The notes under the pieces: generated by a model
The model's database searches: none
Told to the model about the DNA's origin: nothing
What the model saw: only the letters and a program-made list of their open reading frames with translations
Shown: piece after piece, positions 10,868 through 31,815 of the stretch
How positions within the stretch are numbered: position 1 is the stretch's first letter
Layout: each line of letters begins with the position of its first letter
NCBI GenBank assembly: GCA_001695645.1
Contig: LVZN01000034.1
Span: 85,693 to 117,692 of the forward strand
DNA from: Erysipelotrichaceae bacterium MTC7
Lineage (GTDB): Bacteria > Bacillota_I > Bacilli_A > Erysipelotrichales > Erysipelotrichaceae
DNA length: 32,000 nucleotides
Direction of reading: 5' to 3'
Made by a program: the position numbers and the translations under genes

Positions 10868-10890
10868 AGGAAAGTATGGAGGATTTGGAT

Positions 10891-11739
10891 ATGAGTGAAA
10901 ATTCAAGAGTAAAAAAATACGAGGCACTACGTCAAACCTTAAATCAAACCCAAGATGATGAACAAGCTGTACAACAAGCGTTGCAACAGTTGCATAAACA
11001 AGATGATGAAGTGAAAACACCAACACATCAAAAACGTACATCGAACTATGATCATACAGAAACAACTGGAGAATTCAAAAATGAATACTTAGATGATTTC
11101 TTGCAAGAAGTTCGTGATTACAATATGAAAAAAGGGGTTCGTGAAAACGAAGATACACGACTTGATATCTTACAACAACTATCAAGTAAACAACGCCAAA
11201 AACGCGCATCATACCTTGATCAAGAAGAGGTGCAAACACCAATTCATGAAGCAAGTGGTGTTGTCGAAAATGCCAATGTTTATACAAGTAATGACGTACC
11301 TGAAGTGAATATGCATATGGACGAAGTGGACCGTATGTCAATGACGCAAGAAATTGCACGACAAGTTCAAGATTTGATTCACCAAGAAGCAGTTGAACCA
11401 ATCGCTGAACCTGTGGTTGAAAGTGAACAACCAACCACTGCTGAACCGATCATTGAACAAACCGTTGTAATGCCAAAAATGGAAGAAGAGGGGCATCAAG
11501 AAACGACACAGGACGTTATTGATGAAGATGATCAAGATACATCAAATTACAATGAATTGCTTGATCAAACCCTTCAATTAAAAACAAAATTGCATGAACA
11601 AGAAGAAGAAATTCACACATTAAATGACGGAGTGGATAAAAACAACCGTCTTTTGAATATTATCATTGCTGTATTAATTGTATTGCTCTTAGCAGTCGTT
11701 GTTACCGTTGTATACTGGTTAATGAACATTCAAATGTAA
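10891..11739 (+). CDS. Hypothetical acidic, Q/E-rich protein with a single C-terminal TM anchor
   Basis: GGAGG at 10878-10882 lies 8 nt before ATG 10891. The sequence is low-complexity and acidic, with short AEP(I/V) repeats. It ends in LLNIIIAVLIVLLLAVVVTVVYWLM. I recognise no family. Confidence 0.6.
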   Translation: MSENSRVKKYEALRQTLNQTQDDEQAVQQALQQLHKQDDEVKTPTHQKRTSNYDHTETTGEFKNEYLDDFLQEVRDYNMKKGVRENEDTRLDILQQLSSKQRQKRASYLDQEEVQTPIHEASGVVENANVYTSNDVPEVNMHMDEVDRMSMTQEIARQVQDLIHQEAVEPIAEPVVESEQPTTAEPIIEQTVVMPKMEEEGHQETTQDVIDEDDQDTSNYNELLDQTLQLKTKLHEQEEEIHTLNDGVDKNNRLLNIIIAVLIVLLLAVVVTVVYWLMNIQM

Positions 11740-15939: not shown

Positions 15940-16470
15940 ATGGCTAGACCAAAAACAAAATTAGAATTACTTGAACAAGCAACAACCCAATTCGATAAGT
16001 TGGAAGACATGATTAAGCAAATGACGCCACAGCAACAAGAAGCCAACTTCACGTATGATATCACAGGTAAAAAAGAAGCCCATTGGGCACGTGATAAAAA
16101 TTTAAGAGATGTATTGATTCATCTTTATGAATGGCAACAATTGTTACTACACTGGTTAAAACGCAACTTAGATGATGGGGAACAGACACCCTTTTTACCG
16201 GCTCCTTACAAATGGAGTTCGTACGGTGATATGAATGTCATGTTTTGGGAAAAACACCAACAAACAAGCTTAGAGGAAGCCAAAACATTATTAAGGCAAT
16301 CACATAAGACGGTGATGGATGTTATTGCATCATTATCAGAAGATATCTTATTTACCAAAGCAAAATATCCTTGGGTTGGAACAAGCAATATTGCAAGTTA
16401 TTGTATTTCTGCAACTTGCGCACATTACACCTGGGCAATCAAAAAGTTAAAACTAGCAATGAAAGGATAA
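15940..16470 (+). CDS. ClbS/DfsB-family four-helix-bundle protein (DUF1706)
   Basis: 176 aa. KTELLE...EAHWARDKNLRDVLIHLYEWQQLLLHWL...PYKWSSYGDMNVMFWEKHQ...SATCAHYTWAIKKLK matches the ClbS/DfsB pattern as I remember it. Confidence 0.8.
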   Translation: MARPKTKLELLEQATTQFDKLEDMIKQMTPQQQEANFTYDITGKKEAHWARDKNLRDVLIHLYEWQQLLLHWLKRNLDDGEQTPFLPAPYKWSSYGDMNVMFWEKHQQTSLEEAKTLLRQSHKTVMDVIASLSEDILFTKAKYPWVGTSNIASYCISATCAHYTWAIKKLKLAMKG

Positions 16471-16477
16471 AAAATTA

Positions 16478-16705
16478 GTGATTTCATATCTCGTGATCGT
16501 TATTGTTTTCTCAGTAACTTTTGCAATTGGGGTATTTGAAAATCCAAATTTTAACATACAGGACTTCTGTATGAATCTAGCTTTAGAGTTCTTGGGATTA
16601 CTTTTAACCATAACTGTCATTGAAATCTATATCAACGCAAGAAAAGAACAAAGAGAGACAAAGAAACAAACAACAAAACAGAAATATCAAAAACCCTCAC
16701 TATGA
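16478..16705 (+). CDS. Possible small membrane protein (2 TM helices plus a basic K/Q-rich tail)
   Basis: The start is GTG, 8 nt after the clbS-like stop, and the SD is weak. Hydrophobic segments ISYLVIVIVFSVTFAIGVF and LEFLGLLLTITVIEIYI are present. The 3' end runs into the hairpin at 16694-16719. Coding status is uncertain. Confidence 0.4.
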   Translation: MISYLVIVIVFSVTFAIGVFENPNFNIQDFCMNLALEFLGLLLTITVIEIYINARKEQRETKKQTTKQKYQKPSL

Positions 16706-16719
16706 ACAAATAGTGGGGG
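16689..16719 (-). terminator. Hairpin terminator, best oriented for the minus-strand (DUF2087 gene) transcript
   Basis: CCCTCACTAT-GAACAA-ATAGTGGGGG forms a 10-bp stem with one G-U pair. T5 follows on the minus strand (A-run at 16689-16693). On the plus strand only a poor U-tract follows. Confidence 0.5.
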
Positions 16720-16754
16720 TTAACTGTCTATTTATGCGTATTTATGGATATAGT

Positions 16755-16782
16755 ACTTCGCATAATGTGTATTATGTAATAT
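16755..16782 (+). other. dif: Candidate chromosome dimer resolution site dif (XerC arm, 6-bp core, XerD arm)
   Basis: The site reads ACTTCGCATAA TGTGTA TTATGTAATAT. From memory, E. coli dif is GGTGCGCATAA TGTATA TTATGTTAAAT and B. subtilis dif is ACTTCCTAGAA TATATA TTATGTAAACT, giving about 21 of 28 matches to each. The conserved inner CATAA / TTATG half-site cores are present, and the left arm starts ACTTC like B. subtilis. It sits exactly at the convergent gene-orientation switch. Confidence 0.75.
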
Positions 16783-16799
16783 TTAGATATATGAATTTA

Positions 16800-17552
16800 C
16801 TATGACTCTACAGTTTCGGGTTTCCAGTATCGTGTACCGTCATCCGTACGCTTTAAAAATCCATATTCAATCATATACCTACGTATCGTAACAAAATCAT
16901 CGTAGATTGCTTTCAGTATTTCATTAACTTCCATTTCTGTATATTTTTGATTCTCATCAAATTGTTTAGCTATCATACGTAATATTGCTAACTTTGCTTT
17001 TTGCTTTGCTGGTAGCATTTTTAGTTGCAATGGATTTGTACTACTAAAATATCGATCAATGAACTCTTGTTCTTCTTGTAGCGTCATTAGATATCGATCA
17101 TCGACCATTGTCGCGCTTTGATGTATAGGAATGTACGCTTCAAAGGAACTCGATTGCTCTGAGAGCTCGTACATTGCTAAAAATACCTTGGCTTGCTTTG
17201 CTTTTTCCTTTAATTGATAACGTTGTTGTCGGACCGTTGATAATGATGTATGTGTCATTTCAGAGATTTCTTTATCACTTTTGTTATCCGCAAAGTATGA
17301 AAGCATTCGTTTTTGAACATCACTTAACATTGTTTGCTTCTTATCAAGTTTAAATAATTCATGTAAAGGACTACCATGTACATCGCAAATATGCCGTTTT
17401 ACAGCAGCTTTTGCATCTAATAAATCGTCTGCAAAAGAATATATGTGTCCAATTTCATATGTTTTGTCACAATAATTACATACATATGTATCTTTGTTTT
17501 GCACATAACCACATTTCAACGTTTCCAAGCTTAAATCTTCAATTGTTTTCAT
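16800..17552 (-). CDS. DUF2087-domain putative transcriptional regulator (Cys/His cluster, HTH, DUF2087)
   Basis: 250 aa. The N-terminus has C14...C25xxC28...HxCxxH. The central HTH-like segment is KSDKEISEMTHTSLSTVRQQRYQLKEKA. The C-terminus EMEVNEILKAIYDDFVTIRRYMIEYGFLKR is DUF2087-like. The SD is GAGGTG. Confidence 0.7.
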   Translation of the reverse strand: MKTIEDLSLETLKCGYVQNKDTYVCNYCDKTYEIGHIYSFADDLLDAKAAVKRHICDVHGSPLHELFKLDKKQTMLSDVQKRMLSYFADNKSDKEISEMTHTSLSTVRQQRYQLKEKAKQAKVFLAMYELSEQSSSFEAYIPIHQSATMVDDRYLMTLQEEQEFIDRYFSSTNPLQLKMLPAKQKAKLAILRMIAKQFDENQKYTEMEVNEILKAIYDDFVTIRRYMIEYGFLKRTDDGTRYWKPETVES

Positions 17553-17566
17553 ACATTTTCACCTCT

Positions 17567-17599
17567 ATATATAAACATTAACATGAAACGTTTATATAT
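17567..17599. repeat. 10-bp inverted repeat in the 5' UTR or operator region of the DUF2087 gene
   Basis: ATATATAAAC, a 13-nt spacer, then GTTTATATAT. It lies between the putative -10 and the SD of the gene at 17552. Confidence 0.5.
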
Positions 17600-17602
17600 T
17601 CA

Positions 17603-17614
17603 ACATTATAATGT
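17603..17614 (-). promoter_or_regulatory. Putative -10 (TATAAT) embedded in a perfect 12-bp palindrome
   Basis: ACATTATAATGT is a perfect palindrome, so TATAAT reads on both strands. A TTGTTT -35-like hexamer lies about 18 nt upstream on the minus strand. Confidence 0.45.
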
Positions 17615-17662
17615 CATTTAAGTTTATAAAACAAAAAAAGAAGTAAAGTTACCTTAGTGCAA

Positions 17663-18556
17663 CTATCTCTTCTTTTTGTTCATTGCATGTAAATATTCTT
17701 GTTTCAGTCGATCACTTTGAATATGCGTGTATATTTGCGTCGTTGAAATATCACTATGCCCAAGTAGTTCTTGAACACTGCGTAAGTCTGCACCACCGTT
17801 TAGCAAGTGTGTCGCAAAGCTATGTCGAAACGAGTGTGCTGAAATTGCATCCTGCAGGTCTAGTTCAGTTAACTTTTTTTTAATCATCGTATGCACGTAT
17901 TGTCTTGTAAGTCGATTCCCTCTTTGATTGATAAAAACATACTGCAGTTTTTTTGTATTCCAAAGTACACGAGGACCATCAAAATACAGCTGTAAGCAAT
18001 CAATTGCATGTTGGTTAATTGGAATCAATCGTTCTTTATTTCCCTTCCCTATGGCTTTAATAATGCCTTGTTGCAAGTGCAATTGATTCATTTGCAAATT
18101 GCAGACTTCACTAACACGTAATCCACAACCATACATGACTTCAATTATTGCATGCTGATATAAATCCACATCTTTTTTATCATCAAAAGAACCGATAAAC
18201 ATATCTAGATCACTTTCATTTAAAAATGATGGGAGTTTGTTTGCTTTTTTACTTAACTTTACATGCATCGCAGGATTTGCTATCGATGGAAAATTATAGG
18301 TAACATAGAAATGAAAATTACGAATGGAGACAATCATCCGATTGATGGAGTTTGTTTTTTTCGACAACGCTTGTTCTTGGATGAATGCTTCAATTTCCTT
18401 ATATGCAATTGCTTCGACATCACAAAAATTTCGACTTGTCATATACGTTTCATATTGTGTTAAGTCATTTTTGTAGTTTGTTATCGTGGTTAATGCTTTC
18501 TGATCAATCACACTAATGTAGTGGATGTAATTTTCAATGGCTTCATGAAGTTTCAT
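17663..18556 (-). CDS. xerD: XerC/XerD-family tyrosine recombinase (XerD-like)
   Basis: The catalytic set is present: GLRVSE (R), HSFRHSFATH (HxxR), LLGHSDISTTQIYTH (H/Y). It has an N-terminal SAM-like core-binding domain and is about 297 aa. I chose ATG 18556 because the upstream ATG 18562 abuts the -10 box. Confidence 0.8.
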   Translation of the reverse strand: MKLHEAIENYIHYISVIDQKALTTITNYKNDLTQYETYMTSRNFCDVEAIAYKEIEAFIQEQALSKKTNSINRMIVSIRNFHFYVTYNFPSIANPAMHVKLSKKANKLPSFLNESDLDMFIGSFDDKKDVDLYQHAIIEVMYGCGLRVSEVCNLQMNQLHLQQGIIKAIGKGNKERLIPINQHAIDCLQLYFDGPRVLWNTKKLQYVFINQRGNRLTRQYVHTMIKKKLTELDLQDAISAHSFRHSFATHLLNGGADLRSVQELLGHSDISTTQIYTHIQSDRLKQEYLHAMNKKKR

Positions 18557-18562
18557 ACACAT

Positions 18563-27501: not shown

Positions 27502-28281
27502 TTATAACCAACCAAAATGTTTACATGCGTGTAAGATTCCATCCTTGTCGCTATCGGTTGTGACATAGTCCGCAACTGCCTTCAGTTGGTCAATCGCATT
27601 TCCCATTGCAATACCAATTGCAGCCCCTTGGATCATAGACATATCATTGCTGCCATCACCAAAACAAACAACATCTTCCTTCGGTGCTTTCAGATAATCC
27701 ATCAGTTGATGAATACCTCCAATTTTATCATCAGGTTCAACAATCATGAATGGTGCATAATAACGCATTAGAATGATGTTTTCATAAGTGACACCATCGT
27801 TATGGTCCAAATATGATTCATCTACTAGCATACGCGTAATACTCTCGTACGCGGTGCCTGTAAAATATGGATTGATGGTGATCTTCCCCCAAAAATTAAA
27901 ATCATCAGCAGTTTTCTTCAGTTCTAAACTATTGGTCACAAAGGCATCATCACCTGCAACCGAAATCGCATACGGAACATGATTCGCCTCGCATTCTGCA
28001 ATCAGATGCCCAACTTCTTTTTGGTCCATCCCTTGATGGAAAATTCTCTCACCTGCTAAACTAGCAGTATACCCACCATTGCAGATCATATGATCAATTC
28101 CAGTTTTTTCAGCCATTTCTTTGGCGTGAAAATAGGGACGACCTGTAGCTAAACACAGAAAATGTCCAGCATCTTTTAACGCTTGAATCGTTTCTAAAGT
28201 AAGCTGTGGAATTTCATTTCCATACTTCACTCCCGTTGTTAATGTTCCATCCAAATCAAAAAACATGTATTTTTTATCCAT
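27502..28281 (-). CDS. Cof-type HAD-IIB family hydrolase (second copy in the window)
   Basis: MDKKYMFFDLDGTLT is motif I, LATGRP motif II and FGDGSNDMSMI motif IV. GAGGGA lies 5 nt before ATG 28281. Confidence 0.85.
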   Translation of the reverse strand: MDKKYMFFDLDGTLTTGVKYGNEIPQLTLETIQALKDAGHFLCLATGRPYFHAKEMAEKTGIDHMICNGGYTASLAGERIFHQGMDQKEVGHLIAECEANHVPYAISVAGDDAFVTNSLELKKTADDFNFWGKITINPYFTGTAYESITRMLVDESYLDHNDGVTYENIILMRYYAPFMIVEPDDKIGGIHQLMDYLKAPKEDVVCFGDGSNDMSMIQGAAIGIAMGNAIDQLKAVADYVTTDSDKDGILHACKHFGWL

Positions 28282-28330
28282 TATAATCCCTCGATTCCTG
28301 CAACACACATAACCTTACTGGCTAGATAGT

Positions 28331-28359
28331 AAAAAAAAGAATAGTTCTACTATTCTTTA
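28331..28359 (-). terminator. Rho-independent terminator of asp23
   Basis: On the minus strand, AAGAATAGT-AGA-ACTATTCTT forms a 9-bp stem that includes the TAG stop. T8 follows. Confidence 0.75.
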
Positions 28360-28679
28360 AAATCGAATCCGATTACGCGGATATCAATTTCTTCCGGTTC
28401 AATATCACACATATGTTTAATGTTTTCATAAATCTTACGTTGTAAGTTACTAGCAACATCAGGTACATTTGAATTGTATTTCACCTTTACGTTTACGATG
28501 ATGTGTAAACGATCATTTACAACTTTAGATTGAATCGCATTTTTAAACGCTTTTTTATCTGCCAATTCGACCGCTTGGTCTTCCTCAACACAAACAGCAG
28601 CAATACTAGAGAAAACCTCTGTACTTAAAGCAACCAACCCTTTTTCTTTTGTATTCATTGCAATATATTCTTGAGCCAT
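28350..28679 (-). CDS. Asp23/Gls24-family (alkaline shock protein, YqhY-like) protein
   Basis: About 109 aa. GLVALSTEVFSSIAAVCVEE...LHIIVNVKVKYNSNVPDVASNLQRKIYENI...IDIRV matches the family. GAGGTG lies 6 nt before ATG 28679. The track ORF starts at GTG 28688, inside that SD. Confidence 0.85.
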   Translation of the reverse strand: MAQEYIAMNTKEKGLVALSTEVFSSIAAVCVEEDQAVELADKKAFKNAIQSKVVNDRLHIIVNVKVKYNSNVPDVASNLQRKIYENIKHMCDIEPEEIDIRVIGFDFKE

Positions 28680-28699: not shown

Positions 28700-28708
28700 A
28701 TTATAGCA
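28700..28708 (-). promoter_or_regulatory. Extended -10 promoter of asp23
   Basis: On the minus strand, TGcTATAAT runs 28708->28700, about 21 nt upstream of the ATG. Confidence 0.5.
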
Positions 28709-28731
28709 CACAACTACGAAAATAGTTGTGC
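28706..28731 (-). repeat. Inverted repeat or hairpin spanning the stop codon of the RSH-like gene and the asp23 promoter spacer
   Basis: On the minus strand, GCACAACTA-TTTTCG-TAGTTGTGtGC has an 8-bp perfect core (CACAACTA/TAGTTGTG). The TAG stop at 28716->28714 lies in the 3' arm. Confidence 0.55.
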
Positions 28732-30078
28732 AATACTATGTGTAATCTCACTTTGATACATCTCTTTATTTGCTGCGAAATCAACATAGTTAATGATTCG
28801 TTTATCCACACTGTTCAAAAAACTATTGTATGCAATTTGAATCTCGTGAATGCGTTCGTTGTGTACAATTTCAATGGTTTCCATTTGAATCAACGCTTGT
28901 GCAAGCATCAATTCCATATCACGTACAATTAAAGTTACATCACTCTGTGAACAACTTTTAAAGTAATCATCATAACAATTTGCTTCAATCATCGACTTAT
29001 GATAAACGCCAATAAACAAGCGGAAATCTTCGTCGTTGTTACCTGGTTCAATCGCAAAGAGGATTTTAAAGAACACATACCATTCAAAGTCCTTATTCAT
29101 CACATCTATAAAGAATGCAGACATAGCGTTACTAAAAGCATCTTTCGCGCGTTTTGGTGCGTGCACTTCGATGTGGTTTTCAAAATCCATTTCGTCATCT
29201 TGGATACGTTTAAAAATTCCAAGCAAAGATAAAATCTGATCTTTATTGCTGTAATCCATTAAGTCTTTTTCAAAGATGTAGTGCCCCAAAATGGTACTTG
29301 TCCCACGAATATCTACACCAAACCCGATAGAGTTTTGTAGTTTTTGTAAGCATAAATCGTTAATCGCTTTACTAATCAATTCTTCAAATGAATAGCGCGA
29401 TAACATTTTATTTGAGACTTCACTTTCGTTATCCAAAGAATCGTAAATAATATGTAATTGTCGATCTATAATCACCAAATTTGCTTTAATGGAACTTAAC
29501 ATATCCTTGATTAAACCGTCCGCTACACGGAAGGTATGATTTTTATATACCAGTTTATGTTCAATATCCGACCAAAATGAGTTAACCAGACTTTTGATTT
29601 GTAATTCAAAACGGACTTTATGCGTACCGTTTAAATAATATCCATCAATGCGGTATATCGTATATCCGTTTTTTTGTTTTTGGGGTTGAACACTTCCCAT
29701 TTCAAGAGCTAAATTTGGATGATGTTCATTGGAATAAAAGCCATCTTCAAGTTGCTCTGTAAAGTATTCTTTAAGTTGTTGGTACGCCTTACCCTCATCT
29801 TCAATAAAACGAACATCGATTTTCAAACCAATTAAATCATGCATATTTCCAATGATTTCACGCGGTGTTTCATAGGTTAAGTAATAACGATTGCGGATAA
29901 TTTTCTCTCGCAGGGACATTTCACTTTTAATTCGCGTTGAAATCCCCGTTTGTATTTCCGGGTCTAATACACTGATCAATGTATGTTTTATTTTTTTTGT
30001 GATGATTTCATATTCATCAAGATTTTCTTGAAATAGATTAATGGAGCGATCAATTATATCAAACATTTCTAATTTCAT
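28714..30078 (-). CDS. RelA/SpoT-homologue (small alarmone synthetase-like) catalytic domain fused to an unassigned C-terminal domain of about 270 aa
   Basis: The N-terminal ~185 aa carry the RSH synthetase motifs. R49-I-K-S..S..REK..R matches RelQ GRVKxxxSxxEKxxRK. M-H-D81-L-I-G-L-K-I matches DIAGLRI. G138-Y matches GYRSxH. F-E158-L-Q-I-K-S...FWSDIEHKLVYK matches EIQIRT...FWAxxEHxLxYK. Residues 186-454 are helical-looking and I recognise no motif in them. The start overlaps the ribF 3' end (ATG 30078, alternative ATG 30066) and there is no clear SD. Confidence 0.7.
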   Translation of the reverse strand: MKLEMFDIIDRSINLFQENLDEYEIITKKIKHTLISVLDPEIQTGISTRIKSEMSLREKIIRNRYYLTYETPREIIGNMHDLIGLKIDVRFIEDEGKAYQQLKEYFTEQLEDGFYSNEHHPNLALEMGSVQPQKQKNGYTIYRIDGYYLNGTHKVRFELQIKSLVNSFWSDIEHKLVYKNHTFRVADGLIKDMLSSIKANLVIIDRQLHIIYDSLDNESEVSNKMLSRYSFEELISKAINDLCLQKLQNSIGFGVDIRGTSTILGHYIFEKDLMDYSNKDQILSLLGIFKRIQDDEMDFENHIEVHAPKRAKDAFSNAMSAFFIDVMNKDFEWYVFFKILFAIEPGNNDEDFRLFIGVYHKSMIEANCYDDYFKSCSQSDVTLIVRDMELMLAQALIQMETIEIVHNERIHEIQIAYNSFLNSVDKRIINYVDFAANKEMYQSEITHSIAQLFS

Positions 30079-30985
30079 AGGTGTATTCTTTTACAGATTG
30101 AACATCTTTAGTTAATTGTTCAATCAATTCCTCCTTACTGTTAAACTTTTTTTCATAACGTAAATACTTAGAAAACTCAACAGCGAGTCTTTTTCCGTAA
30201 ATTTCCTCATCAAAGTCAAGGATGTGCGCTTCTAATGATAAAAAATCACGACGGTTTATCGTTGGGTTGTGCCCAATGTTAATCATTGCACGATAGGTCT
30301 TATTGTTGTATATCACACGACCGATGTACACACCAACACGTGGCAAGACCACAAAGGGATCATATTCGATGTTTGCAGTAGGAAAGCCAAGTTCTCGACT
30401 ACCAACTTTATTACCGTGAATTACAAAACCATCGATTGTATAATAACGATTCATGCAAGAAGCAACGTATTCCACTTCCCCTTTTTCTAAAGCCACAATA
30501 ATACTTGTCGATGAAATCTTTGAACCATGCAATTCAACGAGTGGAATGATCTTTGTTGGCATATGTTTTTCAAGCAGCAATACATCACCAGAATTACCTT
30601 TACCATAGCGAAAGTCTTCCCCAGCAACAATCGTTTCTATATTTAAGGATTGCAACATCGTAATAAAATCTAACGCAGGTACATTGGCCATGTTTTCATC
30701 AAAATGCAACAAGTAACATTGTTTAATCCCATAGGATGCAATGGTGTGCAATCGTTGTGAAATATCCATAATGGTTTTAATATCACGTTCTGGATACAGT
30801 ACTTGTAACGGTTCACGTGATAAGGTAATACACGCTGGTGTAAGACCTTTTTCTTTTGCGAGTTGAACCGTTTCTTTAATCAAATGTTGGTGACCTAAAT
30901 GCACTCCATCAAAAAATCCAATACAGGCAACTGTTTTGTTTTTCATTTGATATGTCTTGTTTGCATATATATCAAAAATCTTCAT
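30059..30985 (-). CDS. ribF: Bifunctional riboflavin kinase / FMN adenylyltransferase
   Basis: VACIGFFDGVHLGHQHLI is the FAD synthetase motif. The C-terminal riboflavin kinase region contains GFPTANI and HILDFD..IYGK. I prefer ATG 30985 (TAATG overlap with truB, AGAGG 8 nt upstream) over ATG 30991. Confidence 0.93.
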   Translation of the reverse strand: MKIFDIYANKTYQMKNKTVACIGFFDGVHLGHQHLIKETVQLAKEKGLTPACITLSREPLQVLYPERDIKTIMDISQRLHTIASYGIKQCYLLHFDENMANVPALDFITMLQSLNIETIVAGEDFRYGKGNSGDVLLLEKHMPTKIIPLVELHGSKISSTSIIVALEKGEVEYVASCMNRYYTIDGFVIHGNKVGSRELGFPTANIEYDPFVVLPRVGVYIGRVIYNNKTYRAMINIGHNPTINRRDFLSLEAHILDFDEEIYGKRLAVEFSKYLRYEKKFNSKEELIEQLTKDVQSVKEYTYEIRNV

Positions 30986-31815
30986 TACCATAGACCTCTT
31001 TCACTACCGTATAAATCATCATTTATCTTTTTGTAAATCGCTATACATTCTCCATCATGTGTGATACATATCTGTTTTGCATCACTGTCAATCTTTATTT
31101 TTTTACCATGATAGACATCATCAATAGGTTCATAGGCAACCATTTCCATATGCGATAACAATTCTTTTATAGGATACAACGTTAAAGTGTCCAAAGAAAG
31201 ACTGTCTAAATCTTGTGCTTGCGAAAGTTCGAAACGACCAACTTTGCTACGAACAAGTGAAGACATGCAACCAAGATTTGAGCTTGCAGCAGCAATATCA
31301 ACGCATAATGAACGAACGTATGTCCCACTTCCACAATGCACGCGAAATTTTAAAGCAGCTGCATCAAGGCACTCGATTTCATAAATATCCACTTGTCTGG
31401 TTGGAATTTCAACACTTTCACCCGCCATTGCGTATTCGTATAATTTCTTACCATTCACCTTGATACTAGAGATGATAGGTGGAGTTTGTGTGATGGTTCC
31501 TTGAAACTTGGCTAAAAGTGCTGGAAAATCTTCAATGGGTGTAATTGGTTTTGTTTCCAACACCTCTCCCCAGATATCATCACTTAAAGTCTTTGTTCCA
31601 AGCTGTAATGTTGCGATGTATTCTTTATCAGTATCTTCCAAGAAAGGTAAAATTTTGGTTGCTTTACCAACCAACAACAAAAGAACTCCTGTCGCATTTG
31701 GATCAAGGGTTCCTGTGTGTCCAATTTTCTTTGTTTTAAGTTTTCTTCTTGCGATATTCACAACATCATGACTTGTCATGTTTGTTGGTTTATTAATTAC
31801 GAGTATTCCGTCCAT
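30985..31815 (-). CDS. truB: tRNA pseudouridine(55) synthase
   Basis: MDGILVINKPTNMTSHDVV...GHTGTLDPNATGVLLLLVG contains the catalytic Asp motif. 276 aa. Confidence 0.95.
   Translation of the reverse strand: MDGILVINKPTNMTSHDVVNIARRKLKTKKIGHTGTLDPNATGVLLLLVGKATKILPFLEDTDKEYIATLQLGTKTLSDDIWGEVLETKPITPIEDFPALLAKFQGTITQTPPIISSIKVNGKKLYEYAMAGESVEIPTRQVDIYEIECLDAAALKFRVHCGSGTYVRSLCVDIAAASSNLGCMSSLVRSKVGRFELSQAQDLDSLSLDTLTLYPIKELLSHMEMVAYEPIDDVYHGKKIKIDSDAKQICITHDGECIAIYKKINDDLYGSERGLW

Follow-up and report, generated by a model that had tools for sequence, protein, structure and literature searches.

The 32,000-nucleotide stretch of the Erysipelotrichaceae bacterium MTC7 genome analyzed here (assembly GCA_001695645.1, contig LVZN01000034.1, positions 85,693 to 117,692 of the forward strand; hereafter, the window) encodes a 454-amino-acid member of the superfamily of RelA/SpoT homologs (RSH). 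The protein joins an N-terminal synthetase module, which is most similar to the small alarmone synthetases RelP and RelQ, to an orphan C-terminal domain (C-domain). We hold it probable, if well short of certain, that this is a chromosomal housekeeping RSH of RelP/RelQ ancestry, which acts as a guanine-nucleotide pyrophosphokinase, is regulated by its C-domain through the equivalent of RelQ helix α5, and is expressed in concert with truB and ribF.

In the same organism, "hypothetical protein A4S06_03520" matches the protein with 100% identity, and the start of the protein at M1 is backed by a family consensus, MRLKVFDxID. Coordinates of the open reading frame (ORF) and of the other features are collected in Table 1. 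An earlier note on this DNA, made from the sequence alone, had correctly delimited an ORF of 454 amino acids, but did not state that it lies on the minus strand.

A RelP/RelQ-like catalytic module

As the earlier note proposed, the N-terminal part of the protein adopts the fold of RSH synthetases and retains an intact active site. The Pfam RelA_SpoT profile (PF04607) matches above its cutoff, and it also matches 54 of the 54 full-length family members in alignment A2. With the window protein as query, phmmer matched RelP and RelQ chains in the PDB at E ~4e-5. A profile of the family, compared with PDB sequences at E<=10, found RelP and RelQ only, with E values from 3e-9 to 2e-7. RelQ and RelP structures (3l9d, 5dec, 5f2v, 6ex0) also ranked first when the full-length AlphaFold2 model (predicted local distance difference test, or pLDDT, 79) was compared by Foldseek, with E ~1e-6 over ~215 columns and target-normalized template-modeling (TM) scores of 0.73-0.75. 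Weaker matches to an exported Streptomyces small alarmone synthetase (9e-4), CapRel (1.4e-3), FaRel2 (2e-3), and RelSeq (7e-3) lie three to four orders of magnitude behind in E value.

Conservation was assessed in alignments of the 120 closest homologs and of 87 sequences reaching down to 25% identity, and in a set of 110 sequences, non-redundant at 70% identity, that spans Erysipelotrichia, Tissierellia, and other Clostridia. Fractions given below with a denominator of 87 refer to the second of these. All motifs quoted in the earlier note are present as written (the basic helix, HDLIGLKI, GY, and ELQIKS), and so are the two deviations that it pointed out, GYTIYR in the acceptor loop (G-loop) and IKS in place of IRT. 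The catalytic Asp and Glu are not lost on alignment, D81 and E158 both being found in 87/87. The basic helix of the window protein, S52 included, aligns to SRVKSFESIVNKLMRK of Bacillus subtilis RelP. D81 is equivalent to Asp107 in SaRelP and Asp72 in BsRelQ (PMC5794853). Invariance (87/87) extends from E158 to Q160, F168, H174, Y178, K179, and N180, and K162 occupies in 84/87 sequences the position at which RelP and RelQ have Arg. In the 110-sequence set, R49, K51, S55, K59, D81, G84, E158, Q160, F168, H174, Y178, K179, and N180 are each conserved in at least 95%. Two marks of the RSH superfamily are therefore present, namely a RelA_SpoT profile match, and the catalytic Asp and Glu together with the basic residues that bind the ATP phosphates.

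Because the donor-site and catalytic residues are invariant across diverged homologs, a dead enzyme is very unlikely. The catalytic site is intact and under strong purifying selection. An RSH pseudoenzyme, with no function beyond that of a scaffold or regulator that binds nucleotides, could account for the two deviations at the donor site, which are the Arg-to-Lys change from IRT to IKS and a variable adenine-stacking position. However, Lys is a conservative replacement for Arg and is nearly fixed here, and all known Mg2+- and ATP-phosphate-coordinating residues are invariant down to 25% identity, as selection for catalysis would give. We find the pseudoenzyme scarcely credible. Residues 1-216 are instead expected to form an active ATP-dependent 3'-pyrophosphokinase.

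An orphan C-terminal domain linked through the α5-equivalent helix

Modeled alone from a 55-sequence alignment, residues 186-454 give a confident prediction (pLDDT 88.6; predicted TM score, or pTM, 0.80) that consists of a long N-terminal helix and about ten more helices. The earlier note had described these residues as all-helical and unlike anything recognizable, with which models and scans agree. Its domain boundary needs adjustment, because the RelQ-like module includes the α5-equivalent helix and extends to residue ~216, so that the unassigned part comprises residues ~228-454.

Residues 186-454 have no match in Pfam, NCBIfam, PADLOC, or PHROGs, nor among PDB sequences, and no Pfam family recurs in the C-domains of 55 members scanned at E<=1. 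When the C-domain model was compared by Foldseek, nothing was found at E<=1e-3 in the PDB (best E 0.98, TM <=0.26) or in BFVD (best E 0.69). A phmmer search with the C-domain against 1.84 billion cluster representatives retrieved 137 proteins at E<=1e-3. Because nearly all of these are 440-512 amino acids long, with the match starting near residue 188, the C-domain is confined to a single RSH-fused architecture of ~450 amino acids; the shorter matches resemble gene fragments.

The C-domain is acidic, with an isoelectric point (pI) of 4.8 (family median 4.9) and a net charge of -18 over residues 186-454; the family median pI of the N-terminal domain (N-domain) is 5.6. The C-domain has no transmembrane segment. 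Within Erysipelotrichia the C-domain and N-domain are conserved to a similar degree (mean top-residue fraction 0.70 versus 0.69). Across the 110 sequences of the whole family, only L201, D205, N328, and W333 of the C-terminal part stay at or above 95%. The first two lie on the connecting helix, and the other two belong to the most conserved stretch of the C-domain.

When α5 of RelQ rotates, the G-loop becomes ordered via a Glu178-Arg117 salt bridge, and the enzyme is switched on (Steinchen et al. 2018, PMC5794853). Because the RelQ α5 equivalent is the physical link into the C-domain of the window protein, we propose that the C-domain may be a built-in regulatory (or oligomerization) module whose state would be relayed through this helix to the acceptor loop. 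Predicted candidates for the relay contacts are D205, a family-invariant residue of the helix, and the basic residue at position 143 of the loop, which is also invariant.

A conserved gene of the truB-ribF operon

The gene order truB-ribF-[rsmF]-RSH-asp23 is found in every Erysipelotrichia-type locus that could be read, which amounts to seven independent loci in addition to the window. They come from Amedibacillus (42% RSH identity), another Erysipelotrichaceae lineage (40%), Breznakia blatticola (81%), and a Solobacterium-type lineage (32-36%). In these loci, the RSH start overlaps or abuts the preceding gene, which is either ribF or rsmF. The overlap of 20 nucleotides with ribF in the window implies translational coupling; orthologs overlap the preceding gene by 10 nucleotides (loci L007 and L009) or, with rsmF, by one nucleotide (L016). 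The earlier note had noticed that the RSH start overlaps the ribF stop and thought co-translation with ribF probable. We concur, and its naming of truB, ribF, and asp23 is confirmed by Pfam and NCBIfam. No terminator-like site was seen between ribF and the RSH gene, in a promoter and terminator scan whose output was not enriched over shuffled sequence.

The gene directly 3' of RSH in Erysipelotrichia varies, and may be asp23, a SpoIIIAH-like gene, or small ORFs. Downstream asp23 is nevertheless present wherever the contig extends far enough (L007, L009, L012, L014, L015, and L016), with one or two genes between RSH and asp23 in two lineages. Beyond asp23 lie nusB-xseAB-ispA-dxs or, in one lineage, infC-rpmI-rplT.

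The RSH gene also evolves at a rate similar to that of its neighbors. Between the window and Amedibacillus, protein identity is 42% for RSH, 39% for ribF, 48% for asp23, 58% for truB, and 64% for nusB. Because synonymous divergence (dS) from Breznakia is saturated, nonsynonymous divergence (dN) was compared with that of neighboring genes, rather than as dN/dS. The values are 0.108 for the RSH N-domain, 0.137 for the C-domain, 0.104 for ribF, and 0.129 for truB. The GC fraction of the gene (0.34) is the same as that of its flanks, without compositional anomaly.

These results contradict the suggestion of the earlier note that the gene is inserted into, and interrupts, a housekeeping neighborhood. 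The block itself is conserved at RSH identities as low as 32-42%, the GC content of the gene is that of the flanks, and its dN resembles that of ribF and truB. The note had also held that universal, syntenic conservation under a known housekeeping annotation would speak against its proposal. Conserved synteny was indeed found, but the housekeeping annotation is absent, because names in the source annotations are generic ("RelA/SpoT family protein," "(p)ppGpp synthetase," or "hypothetical"). Judging from these sequence comparisons, the gene has been inherited vertically in Erysipelotrichia as a conserved member of the truB-ribF operon, and is not a toxin gene that was inserted there. The RSH gene would thus be co-transcribed and translationally coupled with truB-ribF(-rsmF) in this class, with asp23 next. 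Under such coupling, RSH dosage should track an RNA-modification and cofactor operon, and not a stress or defense island.

Outside Erysipelotrichia, the ~450-amino-acid architecture is widespread in Tissierellia (Tissierella, Gudongella, and Soehngenia; 1249 matches), and it also occurs in some Clostridia (Sarcina ventriculi and Maliibacterium). Members in Tissierellia and Clostridia stand alone in unrelated chromosomal contexts, for example, FTCD / RSH / rubrerythrin or clpB / RSH / cvfB. No partner gene is conserved family-wide among the contexts from Erysipelotrichia, Tissierellia, Sarcina, and Maliibacterium.

In Firmicutes, asp23 (yqhY) ordinarily travels with nusB. Asp23 was considered as a possible antitoxin and rejected, in view of this ordinary nusB-side arrangement, the intervening genes in two lineages, and the fact that asp23 is not a neighbor of the members read in Tissierellia and Clostridia. 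As a separate observation, immediate RSH/asp23 adjacency is kept in two Erysipelotrichia lineages with differing downstream genes (L012, L014, L015, L016, and the window), which may hint at a functional link between the two proteins.

Table 1. Features of the RSH gene, its product, and neighboring genes, in window coordinates.
Feature	Position	Strand	Basis or remark
Complete ORF, two-domain RSH-family protein, 454 amino acids	28714..30078	minus	stop codon included
RelP/RelQ-like module, residues 1-216 (two N-terminal helices, synthetase core, and α5-equivalent helix)	29431..30078	minus	Foldseek; NCBIfam YjbM over residues 13-182
Pfam RelA_SpoT (PF04607) synthetase domain, residues 48-181	29536..29937	minus	E 3.3e-13, 50.3 bits, gathering cutoff 27
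ATP-phosphate-binding basic helix R49-x-K51-S-x-x-S55-x-x-x-K59-x-x-R62, TRIKSEMSLREKIIRNR	29893..29934	minus	R49, K51, S55, K59 in 87/87; R62 in 80/87
D81-x-x-G84 motif (in HDLIGLKI), Mg2+-coordinating catalytic Asp	29827..29838	minus	D81, G84 in 87/87
Family-specific acceptor loop Q131-P-Q-x-Q135-K-N137-G138-[F/Y]139-x-I-Y142-[R/K]143-x-D145-G146	29641..29688	minus	87-sequence alignment
Catalytic Glu motif E158-L-Q-I-K-S...F168-W...E-H174...Y178-K-N180, ELQIKS...FWSDIEHKLVYK	29539..29607	minus	conservation in 87-sequence alignment
Connecting helix, residues 187-216, RelQ α5 equivalent	29431..29520	minus	DSSP helix H187-216 in AlphaFold2 model
Orphan acidic all-α C-terminal domain, residues 228-454	28717..29397	minus	AlphaFold2 domain model
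Most conserved stretch of C-domain, N328-x-D-F-x-W333-x-x-F-F-x-x-L-F-x-I-E-P-G-N-N-x-E-D-F352	29023..29097	minus	N328, W333 at least 95% family-wide
RSH/ribF overlap, 20 nucleotides	30059..30078	minus	RSH start codon inside ribF end
ribF, bifunctional riboflavin kinase/FAD synthetase, upstream operon partner	30059..30991	minus	Pfam FAD_syn and Flavokinase; NCBIfam TIGR00083, 240 bits, cutoff 184
truB, tRNA pseudouridine-55 synthase, first gene of conserved block	30985..31815	minus	Pfam TruB_N, E 3.8e-50
Asp23-family gene, 109 amino acids from ATG 28679, downstream neighbor	28350..28679	minus	Pfam Asp23, 39.8 bits, cutoff 28
Cof-type HAD-IIB phosphatase	27502-28308	minus	two genes downstream of ribF

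Acceptor loop and likely product

The acceptor loop has a family-specific form. Q131, P132, and N137 are found in 87/87 sequences, D145 in 86/87, and Q135, G138, and G146 in 85/87. Position 139 is Phe in 59 sequences, Tyr in nine, Leu in eight, and His in three, and position 143 is Arg in 67 and Lys in 20. The loop of the window protein is NGYTIYR (with G138 and Y139), the family consensus is NGFxIY[R/K], and the form in RelP and RelQ is NGYRSxH.

The most likely product would be (pp)pGpp, made from GTP, GDP, or GMP. We infer this because the protein is most closely related to guanine-nucleotide enzymes and its loop retains the Asn-Gly-aromatic core, and because the donor site and the catalytic Asp and Glu are conserved too.

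Several observations weigh against this assignment, or against the regulatory scheme that accompanies it. The loop NG[F/Y]xIY[R/K]xDG is unlike that of all characterized (p)ppGpp synthetases, and Gln135 is found where RelP has Lys; because of this difference, the acceptor may be something other than a guanine nucleotide. Where RelQ has the adenine-stacking Arg77, the family varies among Arg (39 sequences), Thr (15), Lys (12), and Met (10). TruB and RsmF act on RNA, and such an operon is equally compatible with an RNA substrate. Finally, the full-length model has a pTM of only 0.47, with pLDDT of 46-66 over residues 187-260, and the arrangement of the two domains is not reliably predicted.

The alternative that deserves the most serious attention keeps the fold and the housekeeping role, but assigns another acceptor. 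This could be adenine nucleotides, yielding (pp)pApp, or an RNA 3' end such as the tRNA CCA, in which case the protein would modify translation in a regulated and non-lethal manner, and would be co-expressed with TruB and RsmF. It would fit the departure of the loop from the GYRSxH of RelP and RelQ, with Phe as the most frequent stacking residue and Gln135 in place of Lys. It would also fit operon partners that are tRNA and rRNA modification enzymes, and the presence of infC-rpmI-rplT directly downstream in one lineage. Precedents exist in Tas1 and FaRel, which make (pp)pApp, and in FaRel2 and CapRel, which act on tRNA (PMC7229694; bioRxiv 10.1101/2021.04.30.441581). However, the catalytic domain is far nearer to RelP and RelQ, in both sequence and fold, than to any RSH of the PDB that is directed at adenine or tRNA, although this argument is weak. 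Retention of the Asn-Gly-aromatic core also points toward guanine nucleotides, but is not decisive. Another weak argument is that both domains are acidic by their median pI, whereas tRNA-targeting FaRel2 needs a basic patch (bioRxiv 10.1101/2021.04.30.441581). Taken together, we judge a non-guanine acceptor to be unlikely, and a guanine-nucleotide pyrophosphokinase remains our preferred assignment.

Comparison with known RSH proteins

RelP (YwaC) and RelQ (YjbM), which provide the best matches in sequence and fold, have in common with the window protein the ATP-binding helix, the Asp of DxxG, the Glu of ExQ, the FW..EH..YK helix, the N-terminal helices, and the α5 equivalent. They resemble it also in being chromosomal genes of Firmicutes that are not arranged as toxin-antitoxin pairs. 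RelP and RelQ form homotetramers with a central cleft, which in RelQ is an allosteric pppGpp site. However, RelP and RelQ are single-domain proteins of ~200-230 amino acids that end after α5, whereas the window protein continues for ~230-240 residues past the α5 equivalent. It scores 33.5 bits against the RelQ equivalog NCBIfam NF053588 (GTPPhKinYjbM), for which the cutoff is 320, and the combination of NGYRSxH and IRT in RelP and RelQ is replaced in its family by NG[F/Y]xIY[R/K]xDG and IKS.

Small alarmone synthetases (SAS), as defined previously (Atkinson 2011, Jimmy 2020), lack the HD domain and the C-terminal domains of long RSH proteins. This is true of the window protein and of all 54 full-length members scanned, in which PF04607 is the only Pfam domain detected. 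The class is also single-domain, and in this respect the family differs, given its confidently predicted second folded domain. The family is thus SAS in the loose sense of lacking an HD domain. Long RSH proteins (Rel, RelA, and SpoT) are likewise multidomain, and further domains in the same polypeptide control their synthetase activity. However, no Pfam match to the HD hydrolase, TGS, ACT, or other C-terminal domains of Rel was detected in the window protein even at E<=1, and the structural match to RelSeq (1vj7) is weak (E 7e-3).

The dual-domain SAS of mycobacteria (actRel/RelZ, MS_RHII-RSD; PMC7591505) provide a precedent for the joining of an SAS to an unrelated second domain in housekeeping physiology. 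The second domain in those proteins lies at the N terminus and comes from a known family (RNase HII/DUF429; PMC3153485), whereas that of the window protein is C-terminal and without known relatives.

CapRelSJ46 (PDB 7ztb, 9erv) is also a single chain in which an N-terminal RSH pyrophosphokinase is followed by an extra C-terminal domain, and in CapRel this domain controls the active site. The resemblance in layout raises the question of whether the window protein is a CapRel-like toxin-sensor, or another toxSAS, whose C-domain is an autoinhibitory antitoxin or phage sensor, and whose activation leads to growth arrest and abortive infection. A distant sister clade with the same architecture, which resides in prophage and dnd defense clusters of Bacillaceae, could be taken in the same sense. 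However, CapRel has ~344 amino acids, is found in prophages and defense islands, pyrophosphorylates tRNA, and senses a phage capsid protein, whereas the gene in the window belongs to the syntenic core and evolves like its housekeeping neighbors. The full-length model matches CapRel with E 1.4e-3 and a root-mean-square deviation of ~12 Å, and the C-domain alone has no match at E<=1e-3 in the PDB library, which includes entries 7ztb and 9erv. Neither a prophage or defense-island location nor a patchy occurrence was found. Unlike fast-evolving sensors, the C-domain equals the catalytic domain in its degree of conservation within Erysipelotrichia.

Other evidence also argues against a toxin. In toxSAS modules, a cognate antitoxin gene is part of a conserved bi- or tricistronic unit. 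No such unit is seen here. In Erysipelotrichia the gene upstream is ribF or rsmF and the one downstream varies, the downstream genes in Tissierellia, Sarcina, and Maliibacterium are unrelated, and there is no family-wide partner gene. The protein has no PADLOC match, and a PHROGs scan returned nothing meaningful. Three scans of IMG/VR (2.9 million contigs) produced a single viral contig, which belongs to the Bacillaceae sister clade, and that clade differs from the family precisely at the acceptor loop and the core motif of the C-domain. We therefore regard a toxin-sensor as very improbable. Of the two options offered by the earlier note, the undescribed regulated alarmone synthetase is favored, and the single-chain toxin or sensor is disfavored by synteny, affinity to RelP and RelQ, the lack of a PADLOC match or partner, and a C-domain that resembles no solved fold, that of CapRel included.

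A sister clade associated with DndB

The sister clade is rare, and consists of proteins of 526-553 amino acids from Metabacillus, Neobacillus, Terribacillus, and Mesobacillus (L011:4854-7710, L021:5001-7725, and L022:5001-7728). It is built of the same two domains (hhalign probability 99.9% over 413 columns) and keeps the catalytic set. The acceptor-loop aromatic is replaced by Lys (QKNGKEIYK), and the EPGNN motif is lacking. A DndB-family gene follows in three of three contexts, and its start overlaps with the RSH stop codon. The genes are found either in a prophage defense cluster (PDC-S36, PtuB-like HNH, and MazG-like genes) or beside dndA, dndC, dndD, and dndE. This clade hints at a connection between RSH enzymes and DNA-phosphorothioation defense. 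In a literature search on DndB, RelA/SpoT, and phosphorothioation, the top-ranked papers made no mention of RelA/SpoT.

Other features of the window

The asp23 start is most likely ATG 28679, which is preceded by a GAGGTG Shine-Dalgarno sequence 6 nucleotides upstream, rather than GTG 28688 as listed mechanically. By eye, an extended -10-like element (TGcTATAAT) is seen at 28700-28708, right after the RSH stop codon and ahead of asp23, and an AT-rich hairpin with a run of eight T residues lies 3' of asp23 (28331-28355). The asp23 gene may have a promoter of its own in addition to operon read-through. Among the other neighbors, all on the minus strand, are nusB, xseA, xseB, and ispA. The Cof-type HAD-IIB phosphatase resembles the NCBIfam "YcsE-related riboflavin metabolism phosphatase" weakly and below threshold (84 bits, cutoff 220), and in Amedibacillus and the P0119 locus L009 a 5'-nucleotidase-family gene takes its place.

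Cumulative GC skew peaks near 16-16.8 kb, where gene orientation switches from plus to minus in a convergent arrangement. The best match in the window to the B. subtilis dif site is an intergenic 28-mer at 16755-16782 (ACTTCGCATAATGTGTATTATGTAATAT), which agrees at 21 of 28 positions. An ORF for a XerC/D-type tyrosine recombinase is located at 17663-18562 on the minus strand. The region from 16000 to 18562 thus appears to span a replication terminus. Between efp and cmk, a 287-amino-acid ORF (10876-11739, plus strand) is without a Pfam match at E<=1e-5. Neither an Rfam nor a tRNA scan of the window gave a match.

Implications

The family is not a new kind of system, but an uncharacterized branch, probably catalogued already, of a well-studied superfamily. 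Because FaRel2 comes from Coprobacillus (bioRxiv 10.1101/2021.04.30.441581), published RSH surveys covered Erysipelotrichaceae genomes, and the family was probably binned within one of the 30 published SAS subfamilies. No entry from Erysipelotrichia appears in the main text of Atkinson 2011 or of Jimmy 2020, or in the supplementary tables of 2011. A search of the literature found neither a description nor a structure of this family, and no experiment on it. Searches for alarmone signaling in Erysipelotrichia found no study, and searches for Erysipelothrix with ppGpp, or for Asp23 with SAS, likewise found nothing relevant.

A broader scenario combines several of the elements discussed above. 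The C-domain would be a new type of sensor, using the α5-like helix to gate the binding of the acceptor, in a non-lethal housekeeping regulator of translation that, owing to its altered acceptor loop, does not make (p)ppGpp, uses an adenine nucleotide or an RNA or tRNA 3' end as the acceptor, and is co-expressed with TruB and RsmF. The same chassis, with its loop changed, would have been recruited as a DndB-coupled effector in Bacillaceae dnd clusters. We consider this combination improbable, and return to the guanine-nucleotide enzyme regulated by its C-domain.

The gene looks like a core alarmone-synthetase homolog among the Erysipelotrichia sampled. Erysipelotrichia and Tissierellia include abundant bacteria of the gut and of anaerobic digesters. 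The altered acceptor loop raises the question of product identity in these organisms. If the C-domain regulates the enzyme, it would represent a new input into stringent-type signaling, and the family would offer a direct test of the RelQ-derived model in which α5 controls the G-loop.

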